Origin: a virus
DNA: 64,000 nucleotides
Direction: 5' to 3' (one strand)
UHGV virus genome: UHGV-0026213
In this document: in pieces, positions 25,037 through 44,219 of the stretch
Layout: each line of letters begins with the position of its first letter
Position numbering within the stretch: position 1 is the stretch's first letter
The notes under the pieces: generated by a model
Seen by the model: only the letters and a program-made list of their open reading frames with translations
What the model was told of the DNA's origin: nothing
Databases searched by the model: none
Translations under genes and position numbers: made by a program

Positions 25037-25597
25037 TTGTCGAGCTATCAATCGGCGGTACACGTTTTAATACTACACATCAACTCCGGGCGTTTCGTTA
25101 TGTTAACGGTACGTAAAGAATCTGAAATTGGTAACGATCTTTTTAATGCGCCCGAAGACTATAAAGTCGTTACCATTAACTGCGTAGGAGCGATGGGACG
25201 TGGCATTGCACTCGCGTGTCGTGAACGCTACCCCAACCTTTATCAAGATTACCGTAAGCGGTGTCGTGAAGACGAAATTAAGATTGGAAGCGTTTACGTT
25301 TACTCTGACGAAAAGTGTATCTTGCTCCCCACGAAAACACATTGGCGTTTAAAATCCCAGGTTTCTTATGTTACTGCGGGCATTACCGCACTAGCGGATT
25401 GTGCTGAGGATCTGGATACCAGCGTTGCTATCCCTCCATTGGGAATGGCAAACGGGTGGTTAGATTCCTGGGAAAGACAAGAAATCTTTTTGTGGCTTTA
25501 CAAAAAACTTGAACCGAGGAGGCAACGCTACACGTTATACTTACCTGTTAAGTTGTATCAAGAAGCAGAGTCATTAATTCCAAACTCTTTTAAATAG
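25037..25597 (+). CDS. Macro-domain protein, TARG1/DarG/Poa1p-like (predicted ADP-ribose hydrolase)
   Basis: VVTINCVGAMGRGIALACRERYP and AIPPLGMANGWLDSWE resemble the two signature segments of TARG1-type macro domains. Confidence 0.5.
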   Translation: MSSYQSAVHVLILHINSGRFVMLTVRKESEIGNDLFNAPEDYKVVTINCVGAMGRGIALACRERYPNLYQDYRKRCREDEIKIGSVYVYSDEKCILLPTKTHWRLKSQVSYVTAGITALADCAEDLDTSVAIPPLGMANGWLDSWERQEIFLWLYKKLEPRRQRYTLYLPVKLYQEAESLIPNSFK

Positions 25598-25606
25598 ATA
25601 TTATCA
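25590..25606 (+). promoter_or_regulatory. Promoter-like motif AAATAGATATTATCA
   Basis: One of three copies of AGATATTATC, each 35-70 nt upstream of a gene start (see also 35085 and 44203). Confidence 0.35.
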
Positions 25607-25670
25607 TTAGGGCACACAACAAAGGAGTATTAGCTGTCCGCGCCGTCATTTCGTCTTACGGAATACGGAA

Positions 25671-26396
25671 ATGTATAAATCCAACTGGAGAAACAAAATG
25701 TTTCGTATCTTCTTTCTTTTACTGGTAACACTTTTCGCGTTTAACGCACAGGCGTCAACGTCAACGCCACATTCTAAGCATCAGCGTGAGTTTGCACAAA
25801 TCCAACATCGGTTCGAAAAAGTCAGCCCGTTAATTGTGGAAATCTCACGAAAGCAGGGCGTTGATCCCAAGCTGATGATTACGCTGATTTATCGTGAATC
25901 GCGTTTTGATCCCAAGGCTTACAACAAAAGCTCACGAGCACATAGCCTGGTACAGATGCTTCCAAGTACCAAGCGTAATCTGCTAAAGCTTTATGGAAAA
26001 GAATTAGGTCTTAGTCAGAACGCTGATTTGTATAATCCGCGTAATGCTGTTTTGCTGGCTACCGCGTATGTTAAACATCTTGAGAAGGGGTTAACCAAAC
26101 GACTCAAACGCAAGCCCACCATGGCTGAAATTGCGTTAGCTTACCACTGGGGTGAAAGTGGCGCTCACACGCGAATCAAAAGCAAATCTCGAGCAGCACA
26201 ACGAGAAATGGCAGGCTTTATGAAAGACGCCGCGTTCTATAGCGCGAAAATCGATGTGCCTGTTGTTGTGGGCTCGGCCCCACGTCAGCTTGCGTTTGCG
26301 AAGAAAACACCACGTCAGATTCAACTGGCGGAAGTTAGTAGAATTTGGGATACGATAAACACGAGTTTTCCAATCAATAGAGGAGTTACCCTTTGA
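25671..26396 (+). CDS. Secreted lytic transglycosylase (SLT domain)
   Basis: Signal peptide MFRIFFLLLVTLFAFNAQA (probable true start at the internal ATG near 25698) and catalytic-region motif IYRESRFDPKAYNKSSRAHSLVQMLPST. Confidence 0.6.
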   Translation: MYKSNWRNKMFRIFFLLLVTLFAFNAQASTSTPHSKHQREFAQIQHRFEKVSPLIVEISRKQGVDPKLMITLIYRESRFDPKAYNKSSRAHSLVQMLPSTKRNLLKLYGKELGLSQNADLYNPRNAVLLATAYVKHLEKGLTKRLKRKPTMAEIALAYHWGESGAHTRIKSKSRAAQREMAGFMKDAAFYSAKIDVPVVVGSAPRQLAFAKKTPRQIQLAEVSRIWDTINTSFPINRGVTL

Positions 26397-26902
26397 GCAT
26401 CGTAGTAACCGATTGGTATAAAGGCATTACAAAAGCCGCACAATTGACCGCGAAAGACGTTTACAGTATCGTCCGAAGCAGTATCGAAGACGAGATTAAG
26501 TCGGATGAAGAATTCGCTGAGAAACACGAATTTTACGATGCTTTACCCACAGCATTCGGTGATGACGAAGAAGAAGGTTTAGAGTTTGACTGGAACGTCA
26601 ACCTTGCCTTGTTGTGGATTTGTGGTTTACGACCAACGGTAAAAGAAACCGAAGAAGGGAAAGTCTTGCTTTGGAATTTTACCGGGCAGTATAACCGTAA
26701 TTTAGTCTTTAAACAGGCGTATATGGACGCTACTGTAGAACTTCAAAATCTACTGCTTGGTGAAAACACATACTGCCAGCGTAGTTTTCTAACGATTCTG
26801 GAAAAACTTGTGTCGACACACAAGGTCTGGCGTAAAGAAGACGCCCCAGAACACATGTTCATTTTAGAGTACGCTGTCATTCCAAATCAGCCGTTCTTCT
26901 AA
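26393..26902 (+). CDS. Hypothetical acidic protein (169 aa)
   Basis: ORF followed by a terminator hairpin. Confidence 0.45.
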   Translation: MSIVVTDWYKGITKAAQLTAKDVYSIVRSSIEDEIKSDEEFAEKHEFYDALPTAFGDDEEEGLEFDWNVNLALLWICGLRPTVKETEEGKVLLWNFTGQYNRNLVFKQAYMDATVELQNLLLGENTYCQRSFLTILEKLVSTHKVWRKEDAPEHMFILEYAVIPNQPFF

Positions 26903-26968
26903 TCCCTACCCCTTACCCTTTGTGGAGTAAGGGGTACTTTTATTTTCATTCCCTAAAGGAGCAGAGTT

Positions 26969-27448
26969 ATGATAAAGTTCATTTGGCGTTATCCAACGCG
27001 TTTTTGGTTTGTGGTACTTGAATTGTTTATGGTCCTTGTGGCGATTACTTTTGTCGAAGCGCCCGCCTCGCAGTTGGCTATTTTCTGCCTTTTCGTGACT
27101 GTCCCTGTATGGGTGATTGCGAAGGCTATTAAGTTCGTCATGGTGTGTTGGGCGAATTATACCTGTCCGTATAAACCTAAACAAATCATGAACTGGCTGA
27201 TGTATATTGAAGAACGTTTACCGGCGCAGCATAAATTACTGGGCTGGTCGTCAATGTTGGATATTGCGCTAGAAACCAATGCAAAGTTTCCCGGTGCGAA
27301 AAACCCTTATTTGTTGATGGCAGTAATTGTTGCACAACAAAAACTGGTAGGTGACCGTTGGTTGCCAGAAGAAGCGAAAGCGTATATCCGTAAACATCCA
27401 AAAGCTTTTTACTCGGTAGGACAATGGCGTAACTTGCCATTATTTTAA
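26969..27448 (+). CDS. Membrane protein (about 3 TM helices)
   Basis: SD AAAGGAG; hydrophobic segments FWFVVLELFMVLVAITFV and AIFCLFVTVPVWVIA. Confidence 0.5.
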   Translation: MIKFIWRYPTRFWFVVLELFMVLVAITFVEAPASQLAIFCLFVTVPVWVIAKAIKFVMVCWANYTCPYKPKQIMNWLMYIEERLPAQHKLLGWSSMLDIALETNAKFPGAKNPYLLMAVIVAQQKLVGDRWLPEEAKAYIRKHPKAFYSVGQWRNLPLF

Positions 27449-27501
27449 CTTTTTACATAACCCTTAGTTGATTTGAACAAACCTAAAAGAGGACTATTAA
27501 A

Positions 27502-28434
27502 ATGACTTTTCCATCAGAAGTAATTTACGAACTGGCTAACACACTGCGTCGTCGTTATAACCACCATATACTGCAAACCAGCGTAGACCAAACCGCTGCT
27601 TTTCTGCGTAATCACTTCCTAGGCAGTAATCAGCCTTCAATTACGCAGAAAGAGATTTTCTCTATTGATCGTACCACCAAAATTCTTCCGATTGACGGTG
27701 CAATTGCGGTTCTAAATGGGGATACGTTCAACTTCTCCATGGGAATGCGCCATACATCCGTTACTGTTGACCCAGGCGTAGGGAACGAACTTTCTTTCAT
27801 GCGCAACCCGTATCCTCTCCCGGATAACTGGTTCGTTGTTGTAGAACAAGGGGTGAATCAGTACGAAGTTGTTGCGGCACGCGACGAGTCTTTCTTTGAC
27901 TTGGGGCAGATTTCACGCCGCCTGGAAATTGCTCTCGAACTTCGCCAGGGCAATATCGGATTAAATGGGGGTGTTGTCTACTTCATCCTGAGCAATTGGT
28001 CGCATGTGAGCTACGTCCTGAGAAAAGCTGACGCAACATTCCACGCAACAGAAGTAAGTTACCTCTCCGCTGAGAATGAAGATCAAGACGAAGAAGAAAC
28101 GGTACCTGGCACAGAAGTCGCCGTTTGTGAAAACTACGATGATCTGAAATCTGTGCTCGTTAAGCGTGATGTTTTCGAATCGTTAAACCTGGATTTCCCT
28201 GGTGACGAAAATGAAATATCCGTAGCTGACCTGGTAGAAGCATTGTGTCAGAAAGACCAAGCTAATGAAATCAGTGACGAAGAAGCAGAACTCTTCCAAG
28301 TTCAACAACTCGTCAGCAAGGTTATCGGTGGGCAGGGAATCGTTGACACCCTTATGGCTTTACCGCCGAAGAAACGTACTCAGAAGTACATTCGTGAACT
28401 GGTTCTTGAAAACCTGGGTCAAACCAAAAAGTAA
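27502..28434 (+). CDS. Hypothetical acidic protein (310 aa)
   Basis: SD cassette AGAGGACTATTAAAATG; terminator downstream. Confidence 0.5.
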   Translation: MTFPSEVIYELANTLRRRYNHHILQTSVDQTAAFLRNHFLGSNQPSITQKEIFSIDRTTKILPIDGAIAVLNGDTFNFSMGMRHTSVTVDPGVGNELSFMRNPYPLPDNWFVVVEQGVNQYEVVAARDESFFDLGQISRRLEIALELRQGNIGLNGGVVYFILSNWSHVSYVLRKADATFHATEVSYLSAENEDQDEEETVPGTEVAVCENYDDLKSVLVKRDVFESLNLDFPGDENEISVADLVEALCQKDQANEISDEEAELFQVQQLVSKVIGGQGIVDTLMALPPKKRTQKYIRELVLENLGQTKK

Positions 28435-28439
28435 TTTAA

Positions 28440-28470
28440 ATCCCCTACTCCTCCGGGAGTAGGGTTAATT
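28440..28470 (+). terminator. Intrinsic terminator (CCCTACTCC/GGAGTAGGG family)
   Basis: CCCCTACTCCTCCGGGAGTAGGG hairpin followed by a T-run. Confidence 0.6.
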
Positions 28471-28495
28471 CTTTTTCCATCTTAGGAGTATTAAA

Positions 28496-29047
28496 ATGTT
28501 TCCATCGTCTGAATATTTAACTCATCTGGCTTACGGTATTCGTCGTGGTTCTGTTTTCCGCACACGTTTAAAGGATATAAATTTCCTGGCTAATTTCTTA
28601 TTTGATCGTTTGTGGGATGGCGATAGTGTTTACAAAAAGATCACCGTAACGCAACTTTATTCCCTTATAGCAGCATCTGAAATTGTGCCTACAGATATTC
28701 ATCGATTCAAACGACAACATAACGGGGAGGTTACAATCAGCTTTCTTGATCGTTCTCCTATTACCGTTGAAATCGACGATCGTATTGACGCTAATAGTGA
28801 AATGTCTGGTTGGAAGATTCTTTTTGATTGTGGCAATCGTTATGCGGTACTTGGTTCCTCTGATGAGCGCGACTTCCCTTTCGACAAACCCTACTACTAC
28901 CTCAGCGAAGACGATTTCCCGGATAAAGAATCTAACATCTTTTTAAACGGAGACACAGTTTACTTCATTTTTCGTACCTGGAACGATGTTGCTGCTATGA
29001 TTGCTCAAGGCGTCATCGATTACCGTAAACTAGAAGTCGACATTTAA
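28496..29047 (+). CDS. Hypothetical protein (183 aa)
   Basis: SD cassette TTAGGAGTATTAAAATG. Confidence 0.5.
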   Translation: MFPSSEYLTHLAYGIRRGSVFRTRLKDINFLANFLFDRLWDGDSVYKKITVTQLYSLIAASEIVPTDIHRFKRQHNGEVTISFLDRSPITVEIDDRIDANSEMSGWKILFDCGNRYAVLGSSDERDFPFDKPYYYLSEDDFPDKESNIFLNGDTVYFIFRTWNDVAAMIAQGVIDYRKLEVDI

Positions 29048-29048
29048 A

Positions 29049-29090
29049 ATAAAAGCTACCCTACTCCCGAAGGAGTAGGGTAATCTTTTT
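29049..29090. terminator. Bidirectional terminator between convergent genes
   Basis: CCCTACTCCCGAAGGAGTAGGG hairpin flanked by A-run and T-run. Confidence 0.6.
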
Positions 29091-29712
29091 AGTTAACTAA
29101 CCCGTTAGCTTTAAGAATCTCTAACATTTGGTTGTTTAACTCTTTTAATTTTTTGTTTTCTTCTGTCAACGCAGCAACTTTCTCACCTAATGGAATAGAT
29201 TCACGAATTTTATTTTTTCGTGCCGCTTCCATCTGCAAGTGTTGTTCCTCCGTTACCTTCCCCTCATACTCGAGCGTTGTAATTTCAACTTTCGGCTCAA
29301 TCCCCAGTGTATGCGTGAGAATATCTGAAACGTCTTTTGTTATAGACGACACTTTCACGTAATCCGGTACCAGTGCCAAATCTACCACTAACACATTTCG
29401 TTGATACGTGATCCCGGATAAACCTGGGTATGATTCCAGGTAGGTGTCAGGTATATATACAACTTGACCGTCCCGAGATTTAAATGTCAGAATCGACGCA
29501 CTAACATTCGCATCTGCTAAATATTCTTCACGTCCTAGCCCTACTGGCTGGTAATACGAGTTATAAACGTCAATATTCTGACGTACTAAATCTGGGAAGG
29601 TACGTGACGCTTCTACCGTATAAATGACGGTCTCGGCTAAAGTAAATGGTGTTTTTACTTTAAACAGTCCCGTGGTGTTGACCGGTACCTGGAGTGGTAA
29701 ACGCGTAGCCAT
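29089..29712 (-). CDS. Hypothetical protein with C-terminal coiled coil (207 aa)
   Basis: Minus-strand ORF; 4-nt gap to the upstream minus gene; C-terminal heptad-like EKVAALTEENKKLKELNNQMLEIL. Confidence 0.5.
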   Translation of the reverse strand: MATRLPLQVPVNTTGLFKVKTPFTLAETVIYTVEASRTFPDLVRQNIDVYNSYYQPVGLGREEYLADANVSASILTFKSRDGQVVYIPDTYLESYPGLSGITYQRNVLVVDLALVPDYVKVSSITKDVSDILTHTLGIEPKVEITTLEYEGKVTEEQHLQMEAARKNKIRESIPLGEKVAALTEENKKLKELNNQMLEILKANGLVN

Positions 29713-29715
29713 TCA

Positions 29716-31089
29716 TTACTCCTCGTCTAACTCGGTGTACCATTTCGCTTTCCGAGACAGGATACGATATTCTACGTTGTCGTATTCAAACACCCAGAAG
29801 TAGTTATCAGGGTCGGCCTCATCGACCAGTTTTACAACATCTAAGCTGGTTTGATACGGGTGGTATTCTTCCGCAGCAATAAGTGCCTGGAAGAATAACG
29901 CCAACCATTCGGTCGTTGTTTTCGACATACGCGCAATATCAGGGTTAGTCGTCGCAATTAACGCATAATCCGGGATAGTTTCGTGTAAGGTCGCTTTCCG
30001 TGTATCGTTTTCCGGCCCACTGATTACAACGCAGTTTAATGATTTATAAACTGTTGGTAAGTCAGTTACGTCTGTTGTAGGTTTACTGATCGTTTTAGTA
30101 TTTCTTTCTGCTACCGTCTGGTCTGCCCATTCTCCAAACCGACTGATAGCTTTGACCCAGAAATCATATGGAAGGATGGGGGAATAAAGCGCCGCCACAT
30201 CTTCCTCATTGGGTATCCCACGAATTTTCCATCCAGGGACAATTGTAAATTTCGTGGTAGTGAAAATTTCGGGAAATACTTTTACCCCGATAGGGACAGT
30301 AAAGCTAGAATTAGCGAGAATATGTTCTCGCAACGCTTGCTTTATTTTCGTTGGGTTTTTTCCCGCACGTCCGTAGATAATAACCGACATTGGGACAACT
30401 AGGGTAGACTCGTAGTTTTCTTGATCGTGCCAAGTATAGTAGTTGGTTTGGATAGCGGTATAAGGAAACCCTGCCATTAACTCATTGATTTTCTTATGGT
30501 GTTCGGTAAGGTTAAACCCTTCCATCGCCTTTTCAACGACTGACTTGGTCGACAAAAATGTGTCGATTGGCGAAATCGGCATCTGTACTTCGATTTCGAA
30601 CCCTGTGTAATCTTGATCGAAGTCTTCATCCGAGAACCAAACAATGATCTGATTATCTACATCAGTGTCATCTTGTACTTGATCTGCCGTTACTTCATAT
30701 TTCCAGCTCACCCAACGTGGGAACCAGTTACTGTTCGTCTGTATCATCGCACCAGACTGAACACCAGAAATGGTTGATTGGAATTGGCCTAATAACAGGC
30801 GCTGGAATTCGAGTTCGTCATTTCTCAGATTCCCCAAGATGGCTTGCTGGTAAATCCATTGAGAAACGGTTAGAATATGATCAGAAAATTCGGCTGGTAC
30901 AACAACCGTCTGTTTTTCTCGTTTAGACGTAAAAGTCACCAATTGAACTTGCAGATTGGTTTTAGTAAACGTCTGTTTACTCTTCGCGTACGAGAGTGTC
31001 AAATCCGACAGCTCGCCCACCGGAGCGGTGACGCCGTCCTGATTGTCAAACAGTGCCGGTATCTGAATAAAACCTTGTAAGTCTAACAT
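29716..31089 (-). CDS. Hypothetical protein (457 aa), first gene of a leftward two-gene island
   Basis: Long minus-strand ORF diverging from the 31115 plus gene. Confidence 0.5.
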   Translation of the reverse strand: MLDLQGFIQIPALFDNQDGVTAPVGELSDLTLSYAKSKQTFTKTNLQVQLVTFTSKREKQTVVVPAEFSDHILTVSQWIYQQAILGNLRNDELEFQRLLLGQFQSTISGVQSGAMIQTNSNWFPRWVSWKYEVTADQVQDDTDVDNQIIVWFSDEDFDQDYTGFEIEVQMPISPIDTFLSTKSVVEKAMEGFNLTEHHKKINELMAGFPYTAIQTNYYTWHDQENYESTLVVPMSVIIYGRAGKNPTKIKQALREHILANSSFTVPIGVKVFPEIFTTTKFTIVPGWKIRGIPNEEDVAALYSPILPYDFWVKAISRFGEWADQTVAERNTKTISKPTTDVTDLPTVYKSLNCVVISGPENDTRKATLHETIPDYALIATTNPDIARMSKTTTEWLALFFQALIAAEEYHPYQTSLDVVKLVDEADPDNYFWVFEYDNVEYRILSRKAKWYTELDEE

Positions 31090-31114
31090 AATTAAAAATA
31101 CTCCGAGGTGAGCA

Positions 31115-31618
31115 ATGGGTTCATTTTTTAAAGTGCTTCCGTTCTTCCTTCAGATGTTAATGGAAGCATTTAAACCAGGAGAAGGAGAAAACGTATCAAG
31201 AGCAAGCAAGATAATGACTTTAATCATCACGATCTTGTTGTCGTATTCTGGCTTCGTCTCCTACGCCTATGTACAACAGTTTCACGCGCTCGTTGCAGTG
31301 CAGTCTCATGACACGTATATGTCGCAGTCTTACCAAGAGATGAAACAAGATCGAGATAAACTAAAAGAAGATAATGGGAAGTTATACGACAGGCTCTTCG
31401 TTTGCCTCGGCCAGAAACCGCCATATGAAAGCACGTTTAATTCATCGAAAGCGAGCGGTACGGCGAAGGATCTGTCTTCGACAAAACCAGAAACTCCTGT
31501 TAATCCAGCTTCAACACCAGAACAACGTAAAGAGGCTTCGGCGAGACCTGTTGGCAATTTAAATGCGAACAGCTTTCGACAGGAGATCATAAAGACGCTA
31601 ACGTCTTCTAAGGAGTGA
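31115..31618 (+). CDS. Membrane-anchored coiled-coil protein (i-spanin-like architecture, tentative)
   Basis: One TM segment IMTLIITILLSYSGFVSYAYV followed by a charged helical region. Confidence 0.35.
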   Translation: MGSFFKVLPFFLQMLMEAFKPGEGENVSRASKIMTLIITILLSYSGFVSYAYVQQFHALVAVQSHDTYMSQSYQEMKQDRDKLKEDNGKLYDRLFVCLGQKPPYESTFNSSKASGTAKDLSSTKPETPVNPASTPEQRKEASARPVGNLNANSFRQEIIKTLTSSKE

Positions 31619-32077
31619 TTGATGAAAATGCTGTTATTCATCATGATGGTGTTCGTGGGGTTGGTGAGTAATAGCTACGGCGACGAAGTTAAACGTCCAG
31701 CTTATAGGCCACTGGAACTTCCTCCTACACCGCCAATAATGGTGAATTGGAAAATTGACAATAATGCAATGCGTGAGTATGTTGCGGATGTCAACACCTA
31801 TGCTTACTACGTTTATGTCTACACCCGAAATTTAAACCAACAAGCCGTTAAACGTGGCTGGAGCCCACCAATGCTGGCTCCACTTTGTGAACGTTATGAG
31901 TTACCGAAGTTACATGTTGTACCTGAACGCTTATCTCTTGATGAAAGTTCTTTAACGCCCCAAGAGATTAGCCGTGATTTATCGCGTAAACTCAATAATT
32001 TGTTGTGGAATTACCGTTCCGACCGTCAGACACTGCTCGATTCGTATAACCAATACTTGACATCGTGTTTGTACTGA
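31619..32077 (+). CDS. Secreted Pro-rich protein (152 aa)
   Basis: Signal peptide MMKMLLFIMMVFVGLVSNSYG with no lipobox Cys; PAYRPLELPPTPP. Confidence 0.4.
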   Translation: MMKMLLFIMMVFVGLVSNSYGDEVKRPAYRPLELPPTPPIMVNWKIDNNAMREYVADVNTYAYYVYVYTRNLNQQAVKRGWSPPMLAPLCERYELPKLHVVPERLSLDESSLTPQEISRDLSRKLNNLLWNYRSDRQTLLDSYNQYLTSCLY

Positions 32078-32167
32078 CACTCCCTCCTGTACCCTTTCGT
32101 GGTACAGGAGGGTCTTTCTTTTTAACGTTTACGACTATTTTAATGTAGACTAACAGGAGAATTCAAC

Positions 32168-32902
32168 ATGACCTACCCAAAAATTGTCACCCCGTACACA
32201 CCGACGCTGGTTATTGGCGCTGATGCTGAAACCAAATCATTACGTCCCGATGCTTATCTGTTAAGTGCAGGTTTAGTGGCTTTTGACGTCCCTACATTGA
32301 AAATGGTCGGTTCCTCATACATCCGTATTGATCCTAACGATCCTAAAGCAAAAGCCATTTTCCACGAAGACCCACAAACCGTCGGTTGGTGGGAAGGTAA
32401 AGGCGAACCCGAATACGCACCGTCTCGTGAAGCCTATGCGGAAGCATGGGGTGGGACGACAGCATTGCCAGACGCGCTGTGGGCGATGCAAAAATGGCTC
32501 GGGGAGATTACCGCAAAACATGAGTTTGTGATTACCATGCGTGGTCCTGACTTTGATGCACCGATTTTCATGAACGCGTTCGCACAATGTGATATTCCGC
32601 CAGGGAAATTCCGTAAATTTAGTGCACTGGATAGCGATCGTACCGCAGAACGGTTAGCCTTTGCATTTGGTTTCGAGCCTGACTTAACCGTAGAGCAAAT
32701 TTACTGGACACGCGGCAAGCCCGCTTTTGAGCACCACGCAATGTGGGATGCAGCAAAAGAAGCCTACACCACGGCACGTATTTACCACCTCGCTTTGGTC
32801 ACACGCCAATACGGGTTTGAACGCGCCAAAGCCTGTCACGAAGAACTGAAAACAGGCGAGTATGTTGCGCCGCAGATTCGTGATCAATTAACCAGGGATT
32901 AA
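32168..32902 (+). CDS. DEDDh-type 3'-5' exonuclease (DnaQ-like), putative
   Basis: LVIGADAET (D-x-E), MRGPDFDAPIF and HHAMWDAAKEAY (H-x4-D) resemble Exo motifs I-III. Confidence 0.5.
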   Translation: MTYPKIVTPYTPTLVIGADAETKSLRPDAYLLSAGLVAFDVPTLKMVGSSYIRIDPNDPKAKAIFHEDPQTVGWWEGKGEPEYAPSREAYAEAWGGTTALPDALWAMQKWLGEITAKHEFVITMRGPDFDAPIFMNAFAQCDIPPGKFRKFSALDSDRTAERLAFAFGFEPDLTVEQIYWTRGKPAFEHHAMWDAAKEAYTTARIYHLALVTRQYGFERAKACHEELKTGEYVAPQIRDQLTRD

Positions 32903-32904
32903 GA

Positions 32905-34425: not shown

Positions 34426-35087
34426 TCGTTTATAGTGAGGTCTTGTCAAAAGCCCCTCGGTTTTTACAAACTCACTTTATGTATAACGCACGGCAGTATT
34501 GGGGCTTTAAAGCCCCTTACTCCGAAGATTGGGAAGTGGTGGAAAAGTTAGCATTTGTATTTTCTCTTTCGTTGTTGTGGGAGATCATTGCACTATACAA
34601 CGCAGGTTGTGATATCCCGGAGAACGGCTTTTTCCAACAACACCTATTCCAAAAATTCGCAGCAACGGTAGAAAATCATGAAGTACGCAAGGAGTGTATC
34701 GGCTACGCAGAGCATTCTGAAGAATTGAGAAAGATTTCCAAATTAGTTATCACGCGGACATGGGCTGAATTCGAAACTTACCCCGAAAAAATAATTTGGT
34801 TTAATCGTGAACAGTTTATTAAAGAGGCAGTCAGTCAACATCCCGTTCGATTAATCGTATTAAAGCCGACCGATCTTGCCTTACGCCACATCTATTCGTC
34901 TCCAGAGGAAATCGTTTTTTCCGCAGGAACAACAGATTATGGTATTTTTAAACAGGGGGATTCTTGGATTCTTCCACACGATTTAGACGGGTATTTGCTC
35001 AGTAGCGATCAGATACATTCGGGTTATGACTCACAGGTGAAGGAGTTTACAGTCGATCCTTTTTTCGCTAAAAATATTCTTAGATAG
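34419..35087 (+). CDS. Hypothetical protein (222 aa)
   Basis: ORF overlapping the upstream stop by 7 nt. Confidence 0.45.
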   Translation: MLIVYSEVLSKAPRFLQTHFMYNARQYWGFKAPYSEDWEVVEKLAFVFSLSLLWEIIALYNAGCDIPENGFFQQHLFQKFAATVENHEVRKECIGYAEHSEELRKISKLVITRTWAEFETYPEKIIWFNREQFIKEAVSQHPVRLIVLKPTDLALRHIYSSPEEIVFSAGTTDYGIFKQGDSWILPHDLDGYLLSSDQIHSGYDSQVKEFTVDPFFAKNILR

Positions 35088-35100
35088 ATATTATCCAGGT
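35085..35100 (+). promoter_or_regulatory. Promoter-like motif TAGATAGATATTATCC
   Basis: Second copy of the AGATATTATC motif, about 35 nt upstream of the 35124 gene. Confidence 0.35.
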
Positions 35101-35123
35101 GTAACACCATTGGAGTTATTAAA

Positions 35124-35867
35124 ATGTTAAAAGTTTATGTCCCTCAATTACAACGTATCAATCCCTCGTTGTTCGAGGGAATCTTTTATAAAATTTGGCC
35201 ACAATACTTCAATGAACACTTGAAGGACCCGAAGTGGTCAACCGTACAAGGAGAATTCTTTTATACCGCACAGACGGCTTGCACAATCGTCTTTACTCGT
35301 CTCATCTCCGAAGTTATCGAGGCTGTCAATACCAACCGAAACTTTGACCTTCGCGGCGTAGTCGAAATAGATCTCTCAGGGATCTTCGATAACTACGATT
35401 GCGATGACGCTGTATTCGAACATTTCTCTTCTGAAGATGTCTGGGAGGCCGTTTATCAATGGCTAGAATACTACATGAATTTTCTATTCTCTCCAGAGAT
35501 GTTAGAAAGTTTCAATAAAGCACTCTTCCCCATTTATAACGACTTGCTCAACGTTAAACAAACAAAGAACCTCGTTGGTTTCTGGTTTTCGATTTACGAC
35601 GCCGAATGTACGTTGTGGGAAAAAGAATTGATTGCTTACGGGATAGAACGTGGAGACTATGTTGAGCTTCACTGTGGTTTCTGGCCATTCAGTGACTACG
35701 AGAACGCACGGCTTGGTATCTCACGATTGTGGTCGTTTTATCTCTGTGAAGCTACGGGCGTTATTTACCTTGAAGACAGCGGAGCACAAATCCCTAATGG
35801 TGCTGTTGTAACTTACTGCCAGATTCGAGAAGATCGGGGTCGGGCAATTTATCAGGAATATGCATAA
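35124..35867 (+). CDS. Hypothetical protein (247 aa)
   Basis: SD cassette TTGGAGTTATTAAAATG. Confidence 0.5.
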   Translation: MLKVYVPQLQRINPSLFEGIFYKIWPQYFNEHLKDPKWSTVQGEFFYTAQTACTIVFTRLISEVIEAVNTNRNFDLRGVVEIDLSGIFDNYDCDDAVFEHFSSEDVWEAVYQWLEYYMNFLFSPEMLESFNKALFPIYNDLLNVKQTKNLVGFWFSIYDAECTLWEKELIAYGIERGDYVELHCGFWPFSDYENARLGISRLWSFYLCEATGVIYLEDSGAQIPNGAVVTYCQIREDRGRAIYQEYA

Positions 35868-36409: not shown

Positions 36410-36411
36410 CC

Positions 36412-36936: not shown

Positions 36937-36937
36937 A

Positions 36938-37426
36938 ATGAACGTAAATGATATTATCAATCTTAGTAAAAGTGATATTGTGCATGAATTTCTCAATCAC
37001 GGTGCGCGTGTAAGAAAAGAAATTGAAGAGAAGTTGACCCCAATGGTTGCTTCCACTCCTTGGATGGCAGGATACGCTGCTGCCTACTTCAGTTTCCAGA
37101 GCGGAAAAGCATACATAGCTAACCTGTTTGATTTCTTCAATCCATCAAACGACCACATAACAGAAACAGACGTTCGACAACGCCTTCGCGATTGCCGGTA
37201 TCAGTTCTTAAGAAATGTTACTGATGCGTACAATTTAGAGGAATTTCCTACACCGATTGTTCCCTATACAGAACCGGAATGGGAAAATTTTTATAGACGA
37301 ATTTGGATTGGTGGGTCTTACGTGGCAGATATAATGGAAATCATCGAACGTAGTGAAAACCAACTTGCTCTGCAACTATGGGAGTGGTTAAAAGCCAATT
37401 ATCCGAACTACGTCCAAATAGATTAA
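36938..37426 (+). CDS. Hypothetical protein (162 aa)
   Basis: ORF followed by terminator hairpin CCCTAGC..GCTAGGG. Confidence 0.5.
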   Translation: MNVNDIINLSKSDIVHEFLNHGARVRKEIEEKLTPMVASTPWMAGYAAAYFSFQSGKAYIANLFDFFNPSNDHITETDVRQRLRDCRYQFLRNVTDAYNLEEFPTPIVPYTEPEWENFYRRIWIGGSYVADIMEIIERSENQLALQLWEWLKANYPNYVQID

Positions 37427-37485
37427 TAGACACCCTAGCTTCGGCTAGGGTTACTTTATTTTTAACCATTTTAGGAGAATAAACC

Positions 37486-38412
37486 ATGTATTTGTACAAA
37501 AGTAAAAAAGTAAAAGGTATTAAAGACTGCCTTAGACAAATGGGGAGTCAGCATCTAGAAAATGTCATGGAAGAAAACCAAACAAAAGAAAATCCCGTCT
37601 CGAAATGGATAAAAAAGAATCGTAAGCATTTAACTAATGCCTTTATACCCTACGATGCTGAGTTAGGTCTCAAAGATCCCCGTCCCCTTCACGCACAAAC
37701 GTTGGCAATCGGGTGGCTATATGGCGGAGTTTCCTTAATATCCAACCAAGCACTTAGAGAACTTGTTTTCGAGACTGAGATGCCCAGTAAATTCCCTGAA
37801 GAATGGTTGGACTTTATACCCGCATGGACTGTGGCAATCGATGTAGGTAAAGAGGATGAGACTTTCTTTCTCGGCTATCGAAAAAATGGGAAGAGAAGGT
37901 TTATTATAATCGCTACAAATACGGATTACGGGTTAACAGAAGGCGTTACCACAATTGCCACTTGTTCGTTAGAGCTTCGTAGTGCAGGGAACGGGCTTGT
38001 GGAAATCGACTATGCCGACGGCGTGGAGAACGAACAAGAAAGGATGTTATGGTTATCTCTGGCCAAAGCCGCCACATCGATGATATTTCTGTGCACGCTA
38101 ATCCCACCTAATTACAGGGAGTCTTTTAATGATATTAAGTTCAGGGAAATCAAAAAGAACGGTAGTATTAGTTACGACGTTAAACCTCGTGAACGTGATG
38201 TTAAGGTAGATATCACACCAGGACAAGTGAATTATCTAAAAGGGTTTAACACTGACTTGAAAACCATGCAGGGTATCAAACATGCTAAGGCTGCCCACAT
38301 CCGTCGCGCACACTGGCGTAGATATTGGGTCGGCCCAAGAAATGGTGAAAGAAAGAGAAAACTTTGTTGGATTCCACCAACATTTGTCCGTGGCTACGTA
38401 CCCCACAATTAA
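37486..38412 (+). CDS. Hypothetical basic protein, paralog 1 with C-terminal AAHIRRAHWRRYW motif
   Basis: Shares LAIGWLYGGV / FIPAWTVAIDV and the C-terminal motif with the next gene. Confidence 0.55.
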   Translation: MYLYKSKKVKGIKDCLRQMGSQHLENVMEENQTKENPVSKWIKKNRKHLTNAFIPYDAELGLKDPRPLHAQTLAIGWLYGGVSLISNQALRELVFETEMPSKFPEEWLDFIPAWTVAIDVGKEDETFFLGYRKNGKRRFIIIATNTDYGLTEGVTTIATCSLELRSAGNGLVEIDYADGVENEQERMLWLSLAKAATSMIFLCTLIPPNYRESFNDIKFREIKKNGSISYDVKPRERDVKVDITPGQVNYLKGFNTDLKTMQGIKHAKAAHIRRAHWRRYWVGPRNGERKRKLCWIPPTFVRGYVPHN

Positions 38413-38436
38413 GCTAAAGTGTTTAGGAGTATTAAA

Positions 38437-39336
38437 ATGACAACGAATAATAGACTTTACGGGAAAGCGCTAAGACGCATGAGCGAACAAATAGAAAAGG
38501 CACACCAAACAATTCACGGATTAGATCAGTGTCGTTTTATTCGGTTCATTAACGAGCATAAACGTCAAATACCCGTAACGTTTATGCCAGTTAAAGATCC
38601 GACCTATCGTGAGTATGGTGTTACCGAACAGATTCCCAGACTGATTAAGCAGTCTCTGGGACTAGGATGGCAATACGCTGCTGTTGAAATCATCTCGGAT
38701 GAAGAACTGATGGCGCTCTTAGCAAAAACTGAGAGACTAAAAAATATCCCGTACTTCTGGATAGAAACCATCCCATCATTTACTTTCTCGGTTACCGTAA
38801 ATCTCGACGAAACCCCAATCACGTTATTTATCGGAAGACGTCTTTACGAAGGCGAAGAAGTTCTCTTTGTGATGTCATGCGAAGAACATGACGAGTCGGT
38901 ATACATGGAGTTTGAGATTTACACGATCGATAAAAGTAATGATGATTTCGTGGAGTTAAAGCCGATCCTTACTTCGGTTAAGGAGAATCAACGACTACTC
39001 GACGCGGTCTACATCGGGCTATATCTTTCATCACGAATTAAACGAACTGAACGTGAGAAGAAAGAATTTCGCGGAAGGTCCATTCGTTATGTTCCTGATA
39101 CAGAAATTCGCCCACGTAGTGAAGCAGTCGTTTTAGATGTAAGTCCGGTACAATGGGAAGATATAGAGCAGCAACGCAAGGAAGGACACGAGGTTTGTTT
39201 GGCGATTTATTGCGCCGCACATATCCGTCGTGCGCATTGGAAGCGTGTATGGTGTGGTAAAATGACAGAAATGCGCTGGCGCGAATGGCGATGGATAGCG
39301 CCGAGTTACATTTCTGGATTTTATCGTGGGAAATAA
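38437..39336 (+). CDS. Hypothetical basic protein, paralog 2 with C-terminal AAHIRRAHWKRVW motif
   Basis: Start refined to ATG after the SD cassette TTAGGAGTATTAAAATG (ORF-track start 38419 is GTG). Trp/Arg-rich C-terminus. Confidence 0.55.
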   Translation: MTTNNRLYGKALRRMSEQIEKAHQTIHGLDQCRFIRFINEHKRQIPVTFMPVKDPTYREYGVTEQIPRLIKQSLGLGWQYAAVEIISDEELMALLAKTERLKNIPYFWIETIPSFTFSVTVNLDETPITLFIGRRLYEGEEVLFVMSCEEHDESVYMEFEIYTIDKSNDDFVELKPILTSVKENQRLLDAVYIGLYLSSRIKRTEREKKEFRGRSIRYVPDTEIRPRSEAVVLDVSPVQWEDIEQQRKEGHEVCLAIYCAAHIRRAHWKRVWCGKMTEMRWREWRWIAPSYISGFYRGK

Positions 39337-39337
39337 A

Positions 39338-39380
39338 TAGTTTACCCCTAGACCGTGTGGTCTAGGGGTAACTTTACTTT
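39338..39380. terminator. Bidirectional terminator between convergent genes
   Basis: CCCCTAGACCGTGTGGTCTAGGGG hairpin flanked by T-runs. Confidence 0.6.
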
Positions 39381-39381
39381 T

Positions 39382-40137
39382 TTATTTTTTGTTTGCCTTA
39401 AGCGCTTTTAAGCGTTCGGCAGTAACGTTCAGGCATTCGATTAACTCGTTAACCTGTTTCATGAACAGACCAAACAGCTCCACCCAATCGGATGCAAAAT
39501 CTAACATCATCGTCAGTTCTTTTGCTACATTCGGATGAATGTTTTGTTCGGACAAGATTTCTGACGTAGTGCGAATGGACTCGATTGACTTGTCAATGTT
39601 CGTCCGTAAACGTTTCGTAATTTCAACGTTCAGGGCTTTAGCACGATTGAACGCAACGTCAATCTCAGACGCGCTGTGGTACGTCTTCTCAATTGGACGC
39701 TGGTCAATAACGTTGTTAGTGTACGATTTCGCTAATAAGTTAACCAGGTCTTTCGGGTTAACATTACGTAGCGGTAAATTAACGTTTTTGTAACGGAAAC
39801 CAATCGGTAATGACAGTACCCCCACATCATGTGTAAGGGCCGAAAGTTGTTTATCGACCGGCACCAGAATACCCGTATAGATGTTTTGTAGTGAACTCCA
39901 TACGGATTCTAAGCGGTTCAAGTGATCCATCACGTAGGTATTAAACCCAGGTGGAACGATAACCAACATTCCCGCAAAGTGTAGGAATTTTTCTTGTTGC
40001 ATCCACTTGGAAACGTCCGACATCTCGTCATAAGTGGTTAATGCAATCTCTTGTTGAGGGCCACTAAACCCTTTCGGTAAGATTGCAGACGCTTTAGCGG
40101 CGAAGCTAGATAACGCTGCAAGTGGATTTACATTCAT
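39382..40137 (-). CDS. Hypothetical protein (251 aa)
   Basis: Minus-strand ORF convergent with the upstream paralog. Confidence 0.5.
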   Translation of the reverse strand: MNVNPLAALSSFAAKASAILPKGFSGPQQEIALTTYDEMSDVSKWMQQEKFLHFAGMLVIVPPGFNTYVMDHLNRLESVWSSLQNIYTGILVPVDKQLSALTHDVGVLSLPIGFRYKNVNLPLRNVNPKDLVNLLAKSYTNNVIDQRPIEKTYHSASEIDVAFNRAKALNVEITKRLRTNIDKSIESIRTTSEILSEQNIHPNVAKELTMMLDFASDWVELFGLFMKQVNELIECLNVTAERLKALKANKK

Positions 40138-40235
40138 TCTAAAACCTCGGATTATAAGTCAGGGTTACATAGTAAAGTCTTTTTACAGTTCACCCAAACC
40201 TTATGACCGAGACTCTTCCATAAAGGTAAAGCTCG

Positions 40236-40535
40236 ATGAAAATCAAATTACTGACTCGAAACACCACACCGCGTTTAGAACCGGAAATTTATCTGACCCC
40301 TGTTAAAAAAGGTCAGAACGGTAAACCTATTCAAGTTGGAAAAGTCTTGAGCGTAACGTCGTGCCCGAGCGGTAAACGTGTTATGGAACTGGAAATTGAC
40401 GAGCGTAACAAACGCCGTTTCGAGTCTATTGAAAACCCTTATCCTGAAAATGCGGAAGAAGTTACTGAGTGGGTAGAGACCTACTTTGAATTCTGGCACA
40501 ACCGCCGTCTCCTTCTTCCGACCAAGAATCGTTAA
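40236..40535 (+). CDS. Hypothetical small protein (99 aa)
   Basis: ORF immediately upstream of the recombinase-like gene. Confidence 0.4.
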   Translation: MKIKLLTRNTTPRLEPEIYLTPVKKGQNGKPIQVGKVLSVTSCPSGKRVMELEIDERNKRRFESIENPYPENAEEVTEWVETYFEFWHNRRLLLPTKNR

Positions 40536-40550
40536 TTATCGGAGCGCTAA

Positions 40551-42047
40551 ATGGCAGGCCCAACTAAGCAAGTTATCGGTGAAGTAATTCGTCCACGTTT
40601 TAACGTTTACACCATCATGGATCATGCCTTAGGTAACTACGAAAAAGGTGAAGATGGTTTGTACTACCTTAACGGTGGTTTTGCCCACATCATGGGTTTC
40701 GCAGGTCGCGGTAACACTTTTAAATCCACCTTGTTAGATTTCTGTATCTTCCAAATCCTGCAACGTTATAAAGCAGAGTGGGGTTCTAAGTACGATACAG
40801 AAGTGTCCGCTGCCCTCGATCGTTTAGAAACTGGGTACATCTCTGCCATGAACGCCAACGGTATCGACGACGGAACATCCGTACTGGAACTTATCCACGA
40901 AGGTCGTTATAACCTGGTCGGTTCTGACGTAATGCCTGGGGAACAGTATTACAGTGATTATATTCGTGATGAAGTTGAAAAACGCTTCAAACAGTATATG
41001 TCTGGTAAAACCCGCGTAACACCGTTCCCCGATCCGGTTCGTCGTAAGTTAAAAGAAATCCTGGACCCCTGGCTTTATTCTATCGACTCCCTGTCAGAGT
41101 GGCATTCCAGTTCGCTGGAAGACAAACACGCAAAAACTGATATTGGAGATTCTGATCAGAACATCCTGAACGCCCACGACGCGCTGCAAAAATCGAATAT
41201 GATGAGCCGCTGGCCGTCTGCGTTTGCACGCGGCGGTTTTTACATGGGCTTCGTGGCACAGATGGCCGATGACTCTGGGAAAGCGATGGCAGGTGGCCGA
41301 CAGGCACAAAAAGCAAATGCGAAAATTCTCGACGACGCCAACGACGATCTAAAGTTCGCAGGTATTCCTCGCCGTCAGCTTAGCTTCTTAACAAACTCTT
41401 TTATCGTCGCGACGAAATCAGGGGAACTGAAGAAAGACCAGAGCTATAACGCACAGACCGGTGTTAACGAAGAACTTTATCCGACGTCACGTTCTAAGGC
41501 GATGAATGCGTCGGTAAACGACTTGAAGATTATCACATTTACCCAGTATCGTGCGAAGGGTGGTCACACCGGTGTGAAATTTCAGATGATCTTCTCTCAG
41601 GAAATGGGCCTGTTATATCACTTGAGCCTGTGGCACTATTTAAGTGACACGCTGAAGAAGTCAGACTTTGGTTTCACATCAAGCGGTAGTGGCGGTTCCA
41701 TCAAAGAACTGGATATTCTACCTGGTGTGAAATTCCAACGCACGACGATCCGTGATATGATTTCTGATAACGCACGCTTACGTCGCGCTTTAGAAATCAC
41801 TGCGGCAATTGCGTATATGCAAAACAACTACCATCGTCTTGAAATGAAGTATCATCTCAGCATGAGTGAGATTTACAAACTGATTGACGAGAAGTGGGAC
41901 TGGAATGAAATTCTGGATAACACGGTAGAATACTGGATGTTTAAAGACCAGGAAACCAAAGGCGGTAAACGTACACTGACTGCACGTACCATTCTGGGTA
42001 TGGCTGTCGATGGACTAGAACCGAAGTTCCTGACGAAAAAGAAATAA
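40551..42047 (+). CDS. UvsX/RecA-like recombinase (putative)
   Basis: Atypical Walker A MGFAGRGNTFKST resembling the T4 UvsX AGPSKSFKS loop, and Walker B-like LYSIDSLSEW resembling UvsX FIDSLGNL. Confidence 0.4.
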   Translation: MAGPTKQVIGEVIRPRFNVYTIMDHALGNYEKGEDGLYYLNGGFAHIMGFAGRGNTFKSTLLDFCIFQILQRYKAEWGSKYDTEVSAALDRLETGYISAMNANGIDDGTSVLELIHEGRYNLVGSDVMPGEQYYSDYIRDEVEKRFKQYMSGKTRVTPFPDPVRRKLKEILDPWLYSIDSLSEWHSSSLEDKHAKTDIGDSDQNILNAHDALQKSNMMSRWPSAFARGGFYMGFVAQMADDSGKAMAGGRQAQKANAKILDDANDDLKFAGIPRRQLSFLTNSFIVATKSGELKKDQSYNAQTGVNEELYPTSRSKAMNASVNDLKIITFTQYRAKGGHTGVKFQMIFSQEMGLLYHLSLWHYLSDTLKKSDFGFTSSGSGGSIKELDILPGVKFQRTTIRDMISDNARLRRALEITAAIAYMQNNYHRLEMKYHLSMSEIYKLIDEKWDWNEILDNTVEYWMFKDQETKGGKRTLTARTILGMAVDGLEPKFLTKKK

Positions 42048-42091
42048 ATAGGCTCGGGTAGGGTAAACCCTACCCGACCTAAGGAGTCATC

Positions 42092-42391
42092 ATGCGTTAT
42101 CAAACGGAGATTGTGGAACGCTTAAGTGAAGGATTGGCAAGTGTTAATTTAGAAACAGCGGCCGAATTTCGTGAAGCCTTCACTCACCCGTTTCCCGATC
42201 TGGAATCCTTTTGTTTAAAGGTCGCTGAGTATTACTCGAATCTATTAGTACGTTACGGGTATGCGCCAGTACATTCCGAACTTCCTGAAAACACGGAAGC
42301 TATCAGCTACTGGATTGACCTGCTTGAAGCAGAAACGTTATCCAATTTACGTAAGGCGGTAGACAATGAAACTCGAACCAGCGCGGCGTAA
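42092..42391 (+). CDS. Hypothetical protein (99 aa)
   Basis: SD CTAAGGAG upstream. Confidence 0.45.
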   Translation: MRYQTEIVERLSEGLASVNLETAAEFREAFTHPFPDLESFCLKVAEYYSNLLVRYGYAPVHSELPENTEAISYWIDLLEAETLSNLRKAVDNETRTSAA

Positions 42392-43034
42392 AAAGGCGGA
42401 AGCCTACGCCTTACAAATCTTAAAGTTGGTAGACCCATCTGGCATTAATGCCGAAGCCGCGAAGAAAGCCTTCGCTCGAATGACCGATGAACAGTTTAAT
42501 CGACTTCGTAACGGTTTACCTATTTACAACCCGGTGGGAAGTAAAGTCGAAATTGACCACCTGCGCAATATCGAGGTGTGCAAAATTCTCGGGGTAAATC
42601 TGGAGCAACGACTCTGGTTAACAGAACCAAAAACAGGTGTCTATCACCGTACTCGTTACCCTCACTTAGTCTTACGCTTGCCTGTCCGTCGTCAGACACA
42701 GATGCAAGAAAAGAAAATGGCGGTTGCGAAAAACGACAAAGTCCGCGATAAGCTCTCCGGTCAAGTCGTCGGTCCTTCTAAAGCCTCCGGGGTGTCCTTC
42801 CCAGAGGCATACATCATGTACTCCGATGGTCACGACTGGACACTGAAAGAGTTCTTGTGGGCGCGTGGTGGTAACGACGCACTACAACGTGCTTTCTATC
42901 AATCACTGCGCCAAACCGGTAAAGGGCGTATTGATTTGCCTGGAGCGGAGCGAACGAGTTCTAAAGCAACGCGTACGTGGTCAGCGTACCTGAAAGCGAT
43001 GCATATCGGTAACAACATAGGCCATCCGTCATGA
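42366..43034 (+). CDS. Hypothetical basic protein (222 aa)
   Basis: ORF overlapping neighbours at both ends. Confidence 0.45.
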   Translation: MKLEPARRKKAEAYALQILKLVDPSGINAEAAKKAFARMTDEQFNRLRNGLPIYNPVGSKVEIDHLRNIEVCKILGVNLEQRLWLTEPKTGVYHRTRYPHLVLRLPVRRQTQMQEKKMAVAKNDKVRDKLSGQVVGPSKASGVSFPEAYIMYSDGHDWTLKEFLWARGGNDALQRAFYQSLRQTGKGRIDLPGAERTSSKATRTWSAYLKAMHIGNNIGHPS

Positions 43035-43753
43035 GATTATCTCGGCGTTTCTTAATCGATATTGATACGTTATTTGATACGCGTTTAGGTTGGGTAAAAG
43101 CCGTTAAGCCTGAAAGCTTAGCATTGCTAGACTACGATGTTTATCGTCGTCGCTATACAGAAGCTTGGGCTGGCGTACTCGGATTTGAAAAATGGGATGA
43201 AGAGTGGCGGAAGCGGGATAAGCGCGCGTTGATTAATGCGCAGCCTACTGAATTATTGGCAACAATGAAAAACGAATTCGAGTGTATGTTGCTTGAAATC
43301 GAAATGCATTCGCCGATTGAAAAACCCACTCTGACCATCAATACGTGGCCTTATACGGATTTAACGGGCGAAGAACTTCAAGCCTTTTTGAATCTGTTTC
43401 GGATGTACTACAATAACGTACAAGTTGAATTGGTGTCTTGGTCGTTAGAAGATCTCACACCGGGGAGATTATCATTGGCTTGGGATTGCTGGATAATGTA
43501 CGATTGGTTCGAGTGGATTAAGCTTAACGCCTCACACTTGAAAAAACCGATTCCAAGCTTTACCATCACACACCCTGCCATGCTCACACCAGAACTGACC
43601 GGAGTGTTGGTTGAACAAATCAAACAAGACGGCGTTAACCCGTTTAAGGAACATATCCGGTTTATGGCAGAGTGGGTCGGTGTCGACCCACGAGATGCCG
43701 CTTTATTTAGTCTTGCTCGCCCTGTTCAGGACGTGCAAACGCCGCCGTCATAA
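43031..43753 (+). CDS. Hypothetical protein (240 aa)
   Basis: Start overlaps the upstream stop. Confidence 0.45.
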   Translation: MRLSRRFLIDIDTLFDTRLGWVKAVKPESLALLDYDVYRRRYTEAWAGVLGFEKWDEEWRKRDKRALINAQPTELLATMKNEFECMLLEIEMHSPIEKPTLTINTWPYTDLTGEELQAFLNLFRMYYNNVQVELVSWSLEDLTPGRLSLAWDCWIMYDWFEWIKLNASHLKKPIPSFTITHPAMLTPELTGVLVEQIKQDGVNPFKEHIRFMAEWVGVDPRDAALFSLARPVQDVQTPPS

Positions 43754-44171
43754 TGGACTTAACGTCGATTTGTTCACCTACTGGTGCCAGCTCCCCTTCT
43801 GTTACTTCAACATCAGGAATAACAGGAACGGGGGGCTGGTAGCCCTGGGTTTCTTCGATTTCCTCATCGTGACGACGTATTTTGATATTGCCACGTTGCA
43901 TGAGGATGCTATTAAGTGCATTCGCCAAATCTTGGTTAGCTTCGCTGTTTTTCTGTGCAGCAGCGACGCGACGTTTGGAAATGATTTGTTTGTCAACGTC
44001 GTTAAGCAAAGACCCCAGCCGGTCTACCGTTTTCAAGTCTTTGTGTGCTTGTGGATCGTCTAAGATGAGATTCACAATCCGTACACGGGCTTGTTGCGTT
44101 TGGCGGAGAAGCGATTCTTCGTCGTCCACATCTCCATCAAACGCCTGATATTTCACTTCTTCGTCAGCCAT
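43707..44171 (-). CDS. Hypothetical highly acidic protein (154 aa)
   Basis: Minus-strand ORF with GAGGTAG SD before the ATG; N-terminus MADEEVKYQAFDGDVDDEE. Confidence 0.5.
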   Translation of the reverse strand: MADEEVKYQAFDGDVDDEESLLRQTQQARVRIVNLILDDPQAHKDLKTVDRLGSLLNDVDKQIISKRRVAAAQKNSEANQDLANALNSILMQRGNIKIRRHDEEIEETQGYQPPVPVIPDVEVTEGELAPVGEQIDVKSIMTAAFARPEQGEQD

Positions 44172-44202
44172 TCTTACTACCTCAATTTCAAAAAGAAGTC
44201 AG

Positions 44203-44219
44203 ACAGATATTATCTACGT
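44203..44219 (+). promoter_or_regulatory. Promoter-like motif CAGACAGATATTATCTA
   Basis: Third copy of AGATATTATC, preceded by TTTCAA about 16 nt upstream; in the divergent region between the 44171 minus gene and the 44243 plus gene. Confidence 0.4.

Follow-up and report, generated by a model that had tools for sequence, protein, structure and literature searches.

The phage genome fragment UHGV-0026213, analysed here as a single strand of 64,000 nucleotides (nt; hereafter the window), carries copies of the ten-base word AGATATTATC a short distance before genes, which raises the question of what this word does and what reads it. A first-pass annotation had placed copies at about 25595, 35088 and 44208, each 30–70 nt upstream of a gene start, and had described them as a −10-like hexamer with a 5′ extension that could mark either a separate promoter class or an operator. 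From the motif itself, from how far it extends, which way it points and where it stands relative to genes, and from its conservation across genera, we infer a promoter function. In our judgement AGATATTATC is quite probably the core of an early promoter, read by the virion RNA polymerase (RNAP) of a jumbo phage related to SPN3US and phiEaH2, with initiation predicted at a conserved downstream G.

The window contains three exact copies of AGATATTATC, all on the + strand, when 0.08 are expected by chance, and at least three copies arose in none of 100 dinucleotide-preserving shuffles. They start at 25596, 35086 and 44205, at most 3 nt from where they had been reported. From the end of the motif to the next start codon we measured 29 nt (35124), 29 nt (44243) and 66 nt (25671); the last distance becomes 103 nt if the ATG at 25708 is the true start of the gene concerned, a transglycosylase. 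Frequency had been proposed as the check on the motif, and the word proved to be above expectation in the window and enriched in the complete phiEaH2 genome as well. Tolerating one mismatch adds little (9 matches against 3.8 expected), so the signal sits in the exact word and its flanks; indeed, when the three copies are aligned the similarity reaches past the 10-mer. On reading all upstream regions we also found a related word, AGATATATATTAC, in two exact copies at 13020 and 17408. All five sites have the common geometry ATATTAY-(6N)-G. The pattern ATATTAY followed four bases on by GKG occurs four times in the window, against 0.41 expected, and the fifth site fits the looser form. We therefore do not retain the earlier description of AGATATTATC as a second, separate motif and treat the two words as subclasses, ATATTAT and ATATTAC, of one sequence family. 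Every one of the five sites is on the + strand and falls within the roughly 6% of the window that is non-coding; at two of them the TAG stop of the preceding gene lies inside the motif (25595–25597 and 35085–35087). The geometry fits the mapped early consensus of the Bacillus jumbo phage AR9, AAATATATATTAT-(6N)-G (PMC5312081), and on this basis transcript starts are predicted at the G residues 13039, 17427, 25611, 35101 and 44220.

Rescanning the window with a matrix trained on its own five sites returned no site beyond those five; as such a scan is circular, we cross-trained between the window and phiEaH2, whose complete 243-kb genome was joined from five annotated chunks. There, the + strand carries 19 copies of A[GT]ATATTA[CT] and 11 of AGATATTATC, and the − strand carries neither. 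With a matrix built from 16 phiEaH2 sites alone, the five window sites score 28–45 bits, when the maximum over 100 shuffles is 18.5 bits and every other position on the + strand of the window stays at or below 6 bits. The ATATTAT subclass comprises the predicted + strand promoter elements at 25576–25615 (core AGATATTATC at 25596–25605, predicted start G 25611, 28.5 bits), 35066–35105 (core AGATATTATC at 35086–35095, predicted start G 35101, 32.9 bits) and 44185–44224 (core AGATATTATC at 44205–44214, predicted start G 44220, 39.6 bits). The ATATTAC subclass comprises those at 13004–13043 (core AGATATATATTAC at 13020–13032, predicted start G 13039, 31.7 bits) and 17392–17431 (core AGATATATATTAC at 17408–17420, predicted start G 17427), the latter being the top site with 45.2 bits; both are likewise on the + strand. 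Conversely, a matrix from the five window sites alone finds 24 phiEaH2 sites on the + strand and 3 on the − strand, against 3.8 expected from shuffles, and two of these three − strand matches are the reverse reading of palindromic + strand sites. In 20 of the 24 + strand matches the predicted start lies 25–136 nt 5′ of an annotated start codon, and none of the genes downstream of the 24 sites is annotated as a virion structural protein. The consensus over 28 sites reads A-tract, then t-T-C-A-G-A-T-A-G/T-A-T-A-T-T-A-T/C-C-T-n-n-G-T-G-A. The full element spans about 35 base pairs (bp), with an A-tract, TCAGAyAGATATTATC, 5 nt and an invariant G. This G, seven bases past ATATTAY, is present in 28 of 28 sites and forms the column of highest information (1.8 bits); the A-rich tract lies about 30 nt 5′ of the predicted start and ATATTA-Y is centred near −10.

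The sites are conserved across genera. We compared 20-kb regions around two anchor genes in related contigs and found the sites orthologous to 25596, 35086 and 44205 at the same relative position in every covering contig, including those of SPN3US and phiEaH2. Relatives with 67–69% anchor-protein identity keep the sites, with the core there sometimes reading ATGTTAT. In nine-lineage alignments the motif is the sole conserved block between the diverged flanks and the Shine-Dalgarno sequence and ATG. At the 35086 site, all 9 aligned relatives keep ATAGATATTAT unchanged between flanks of about 50% identity; the 25596 site has its orthologue in the relatives and, in phiEaH2, 5′ of the transglycosylase gene gp120. 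A degenerate scan of a viral collection for the extended motif gave mostly chance hits among the matches listed.

The genes that follow the motif elsewhere in the group bear directly on its reader. In phiEaH2 the motif stands directly 5′ of gp216 and of gp204–gp205; gp216 matches the phiKZ non-virion RNAP chain 7OGP_C (E = 1e-30) and gp205 matches 7OGP_A (E = 6e-37). This led to the prediction that the motif should precede the same non-virion RNAP gene in other members, and the prediction held. As a single-protein search for non-virion RNAP orthologues gave close relatives only, an alignment of six orthologues was used as the query. In 17 of 17 related IMG/VR contigs, and in six annotated phages from five genera, the motif occupies a short intergenic region between divergent genes, and the start codon (ATG) of the non-virion RNAP beta gene follows 37–42 nt further on; both contigs of the window lineage read AGATATTATC at this position. 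The non-virion RNAP cannot make its own first mRNA, therefore a polymerase present at infection must read the motif. Two enzymes could do so, that of the host and the injected virion RNAP, of which the sequence evidence favours the latter as the more likely.

Genes for such an enzyme are found at and beside the window. At the DNA level the window resembles jumbo phages of Erwinia and Salmonella only distantly (about 73% over 2.6 kb); it is syntenic with phiEaH2 gp091–gp159, and has near-identical uncultured contigs of 220–225 kb in IMG/VR. An RNA polymerase subunit of 222 amino acids is encoded on the + strand at 42366–43034 (phrog_3233, ‘RNA polymerase beta subunit’, E = 6e-93). Judged by size and synteny, this subunit corresponds to SPN3US gp218, the C-terminal subunit of the virion RNAP beta, and directly upstream of its gene there is no motif. 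The preceding open reading frame (ORF), 42092–42391, had been taken for the phiEaH2 gp140 homologue, which was wrong: the RNAP subunit is the next ORF. Just past the right end of the window, an ORF on a contig whose neighbouring 723-amino-acid protein is 100% identical to that of the window is 85% identical to phiEaH2 gp160, carries a GDYDGD motif and matches phrog_2986. Again by size and synteny, phiEaH2 gp160 appears to correspond to the SPN3US virion RNAP subunit gp240; a search with the gp240-like gp160 gave no match among solved structures. Proteomics of SPN3US places gp218 (25.2 kDa), gp240 (59.6 kDa) and gp241 (159 kDa) in a five-subunit virion RNAP, which is essential (PMC5694885). There are thus two split multisubunit RNAP sets, with virion subunit genes at or by the window and non-virion beta orthologues in two contigs of the window lineage (L183 and L196). 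The subunit genes matching the SPN3US virion set place the phage, as far as homology tells, in the phiKZ-related group, as a jumbo phage of the SPN3US/phiEaH2 branch. In the phiKZ-related group the virion RNAP serves early genes and the non-virion RNAP later genes (PMC7598289).

We propose that a multisubunit virion RNAP travels in the capsid and enters the cell together with the DNA, that it would recognise the element without a host sigma factor and initiate at the invariant G, and that it would transcribe short early-gene operons, including the genes of the second, non-virion polymerase, each operon closing at an intrinsic terminator. Known systems provide a close model. In every jumbo phage that encodes RNAPs, an AT-rich motif of about 10 nt, highly conserved and specific to the lineage, is centred near −10 of the early genes, and wherever transcripts have been profiled this motif is the early promoter (PMC7598289). 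As in the AR9 early promoters, the AT-rich core ends in ATATTAT and is followed by six variable bases and a conserved G; AR9 also shares the dozens of co-oriented copies 5′ of early operons, the absence of a −35 and the split virion and non-virion multisubunit RNAPs. The two differ in the upstream half (TCAGAyAG here, AAATAT in AR9), in the presence here of two subclasses, …AGATATTATC and …ATATATTAC, of which the second has a 5′ hairpin, and in the genome, which is thymine DNA in this clade and uracil DNA in AR9; moreover, the starts were experimentally mapped in AR9 whereas they are predicted here. The likeness in geometry despite a large evolutionary distance suggests, by analogy, that promoter recognition by virion RNAPs is old and conserved. 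The early promoters of phiKZ and 201phi2-1 (Ceyssens 2014, as summarised in PMC7598289; PMC11512511) similarly have a conserved AT-rich motif about 10 bp 5′ of the start and A/T positions near −20 and −30, can be found bioinformatically, and lie before mostly hypothetical genes and near the non-virion RNAP genes; their consensus sequences are lineage-specific and differ from the one seen here. In 201phi2-1 some non-virion RNAP genes are without a nearby early promoter; in the present group all 17 genomes examined have one at the beta/beta′ operon. The element most likely belongs to an already described type of signal, predicted here in another phage group.

Several points weigh against an early promoter of the virion RNAP. 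The motif counts for this phage cover 64 kb of a genome of about 225 kb, and we found in the literature no transcript 5′ ends, time course, in vitro transcription or transcriptome for any member of the clade. Independence from the host RNAP has been shown for phiKZ and AR9, that is, outside this clade. TATTAT with a start 7 nt downstream would also suit the −10 geometry of host sigma-70 in the ATATTAT subclass, the partly palindromic consensus would also suit a dimeric DNA-binding protein, and one of the genes led by the motif, the transglycosylase, has no obvious early function. RNA-sequencing data for Goslar were considered as a timing test and set aside, since Goslar is too distant (28% anchor-protein identity) and its paper has no promoter motif. 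A full-text literature search for the motif words returned unrelated primer sequences only; logos published for SPN3US or phiEaH2 may already show this exact motif.

Three rival explanations were weighed. The host could read the element as a sigma-70 promoter without a −35, with TATTAT as the −10 aided by a G at −14, giving immediate-early transcription from a start 7 nt downstream, much as at ‘−10 only’ or extended −10 promoters; TATTAT agrees with TATAAT at five of six positions, the invariant G sits at the canonical start distance, and the host enzyme, too, pre-exists when the non-virion RNAP genes need a polymerase. We nevertheless consider this unlikely. A sigma-70 consensus scan called none of the five sites, none of which has a TTGACA-like −35 hexamer. 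By the −10 criteria of sigma-70, TATTAT would be acceptable in the ATATTAT subclass; the ATATTAC subclass carries a C at −7, a position at which sigma-70 requires T (PMC7598289), and neither subclass has TG at −15/−14. Conservation spans about 25 bp, beyond the needs of a −10 hexamer, extending about 15 nt further upstream and to +1 to +4, and it does not differ among phages of Salmonella, Erwinia, Cronobacter and E. coli. Furthermore, SPN3US cannot do without its virion RNAP (PMC5694885), and the host RNAP is dispensable for the development of related phages (PMC7598289). Between 12000 and 51999 of the window sigma-70-like sites are depleted, with 23 found against 35.5 expected in shuffles, and 23 against 33.3, as would suit a genome that is not dependent on the host RNAP. 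For the −10-like hexamer with its 5′ extension, as first described, the virion RNAP is a more likely reader than the host sigma-70 holoenzyme.

If the motif were an operator, a dimeric phage protein would bind the partly palindromic AGATA-T-TATCT, with its flanks TCA…TGA, and repress or activate the neighbouring genes, the promoter lying elsewhere. AGATA-T-TATCT is an 11-bp palindrome: the arms of the consensus are complementary at offsets 1–6 and 9–11 around the central T, the TCA and TGA flanks are complementary as well, and the 44205 site matches on the other strand (19.6 bits). However, the pairing of the arms within single sites is what the column compositions predict, and symmetry is not selected site by site. 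The strong orientation bias in phiEaH2 (24 sites on the + strand, 3 on the −), the asymmetry of the upstream A-tract and the downstream invariant G, and the lack of a palindrome in the ATATTAC subclass all speak against a dimeric operator, as do motif-bearing intergenic regions as short as about 70 nt that hold no other conserved block to serve as promoter. We rate the operator as very unlikely, and a second role for the symmetric core as possible. That the non-virion phage RNAP reads the element, as a middle or late promoter, seems just as hard to credit. Both phage polymerases are sigma-independent and a transglycosylase is among the downstream genes, which would suit it, but in 17 of 17 genomes no other conserved element precedes the non-virion RNAP operon, whose upstream neighbour is divergently oriented, and the non-virion enzyme cannot be the first to transcribe its own genes. 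In phiEaH2 no site precedes an annotated virion structural gene, and in phiKZ the consensus elements of middle and late promoters are weak or just 4 nt long, the strong AT-rich motif being the early class (PMC7598289). Between promoter class and operator, the alternatives left by the first-pass annotation, the evidence points to the promoter class, as the motif is directional, stands at a fixed short distance from genes, is conserved across genera and precedes the non-virion RNAP; the operator fares badly on strand bias and on a palindrome confined to the consensus.

With an early promoter of the virion RNAP as the preferred reading, some additional uses of its core can be considered. A phage factor that ends early transcription could also bind the palindromic AGATATTATC core. 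The AGATATTATC type could also fire both ways at divergent regions such as that of the 44205 site, which lies inside a 71-nt divergent intergenic region. In its − strand reading (first core A at 44213) this site scores just over the shuffle maximum and faces a single gene, 43707–44171; the orthologous SPN3US site has an opposite-strand score of 20.9 bits. The opposite-strand score of the 44205 site arises because the core is palindromic; bidirectional use of the site is conceivable.

The two subclasses differ downstream of the promoter. At the 17408 site a 5′ transcript hairpin (GAGAGTTACGATTAACTCTT) is predicted on the + strand at 17427–17446, beginning at the predicted +1 G, and this is typical of the ATATTAC subclass. 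A hairpin at the +1 G was found in 8 of 12 sites with a core ending in AC (8 of the 9 with true ATAT[AT]TTAC), compared to 8 of 51 ATATTAT-subclass sites (Fisher p = 9e-4). The stems differ among sites and include GAGAGTT/AACTCTT, GAGCATTGA/TCAATGCTT, GAGATTC/GAATCTT and others. Hairpins that begin exactly at the predicted +1 G provide independent support for the start position. The second hairpin of the ATATTAC type in the window is at 13042–13070. The hairpin of this subclass is often followed by a T-run and, in phiEaH2, also by a CGACC box about 25–30 nt downstream; together with the box it could act as an RNA stability or export signal. It is doubtful that the subclasses amount to functionally distinct early promoter types rather than to sequence variants.

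The surroundings of the five sites are consistent with their opening transcription units, since a series of + strand genes, closed by a terminator-like hairpin, extends from each predicted start. The first gene after the 25596 site is that of the SLT-like transglycosylase (25671–26396, + strand; phrog_4067, E = 5.6e-47), and an intrinsic terminator-like hairpin with a T-run at 26914–26936 (+ strand) is the inferred end of the unit from 25611. The 35086 site is followed by a gene for a conserved protein (35124–35867, + strand; phrog_8219, E = 1.4e-62) with orthologues in the relatives; the first terminator-like hairpin after the 35101 start is at 37432–37451 (+ strand), and a stronger, bidirectional one follows at 39342–39371 on both strands. 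After the 44205 site comes another conserved protein with orthologues in the relatives (44243–44791, + strand; phrog_8650, E = 4.2e-53), the inferred end of the unit from 44220 being the terminator-like hairpin at 48403–48430 (+ strand). The 13020 site occupies a divergent intergenic region after a baseplate gene and the 17408 site lies 38 nt past a strong terminator (17350–17370); further putative unit ends are the terminator-like hairpins at 15940–15958 and 19690–19710.

Terminator hairpins with the common stem TACCCTACTCC…GGAGTAGGGTA and its variants recur at 28443–28464, 29057–29082, 48403–48430, 26914–26936, 37432–37451, 39342–39371 and 42054–42077, and several of them read as terminators on both strands. 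About 25–30 nt past many terminators stands the Shine-Dalgarno sequence of the next gene (…TTTTcATTTTtaCCCTAAAGGAG), with no early motif between; a further promoter class may follow those terminators. The leader of the transglycosylase gene (25611–25708) is strongly conserved with phiEaH2 and consists of AAACAAAGGAG, a variable 6-nt spacer and CTGTCCGCGCCGT. In the leader alignment the ATG at 25671 is not conserved and that at 25708 lines up with the start annotated in phiEaH2, hence the latter is probably the true start of the transglycosylase. The conserved Shine-Dalgarno-like box and a CTG could form a tiny upstream ORF of 14 codons ending across 25671; the leader showed no significant RNA fold (z = 0.08). 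After the strong 13020 site, about 370 nt (13039–13410) hold no ORF longer than 32 codons, the next gene beginning at 13411. An ORF of 26–31 codons at 13108/13124–13203 has a plausible ribosome-binding site, and Rfam and tRNA scans of the window, including this stretch, gave no matches.

If AGATATTATC is indeed the early promoter core of the virion RNAP, it would provide an early-regulon map for enterobacterial jumbo phages (SPN3US-like and phiEaH2-like phages, Machinavirus, Wellingtonvirus, Derbicusvirus and uncultured relatives) and would show which function-unassigned genes are already expressed from the incoming DNA, ahead of phage-nucleus formation. A defined template for the biochemistry of the virion RNAP and host-independent promoter parts for engineering would be further gains. 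The motif would be useful for annotation and as an experimental handle, and would come as no surprise to specialists.

The − strand of the window encodes virion and tail proteins. On the + strand, a long block of genes specifies a thymidylate synthase, proteins resembling SbcC, RNase H, UvsX and MazG, and many function-unassigned ones. The window is mosaic relative to UViG_3300029126_000001 and UViG_3300045988_113438: the protein encoded from 35124 is 99% identical to that of the first and 82% to that of the second, and the 723-amino-acid protein (55589–57760) is 71% identical to that of the first and 100% to that of the second. This mosaicism suggests recombination between co-circulating relatives. 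The thymidylate synthase ORF (50541–52076) encodes 511 amino acids, with an HNH endonuclease domain at residues 121–271 before the main match at 257–511, and the phiEaH2 thymidylate synthase gene is just 1029 nt long, which points to insertion or fusion of a homing endonuclease. Finally, two pairs of adjacent paralogues were noted: 37486–38412 and 38419–39336 both match phrog_6160, and 14762–15913 and 15981–16754 have a common C-terminal domain (phrog_26772, phrog_33648).

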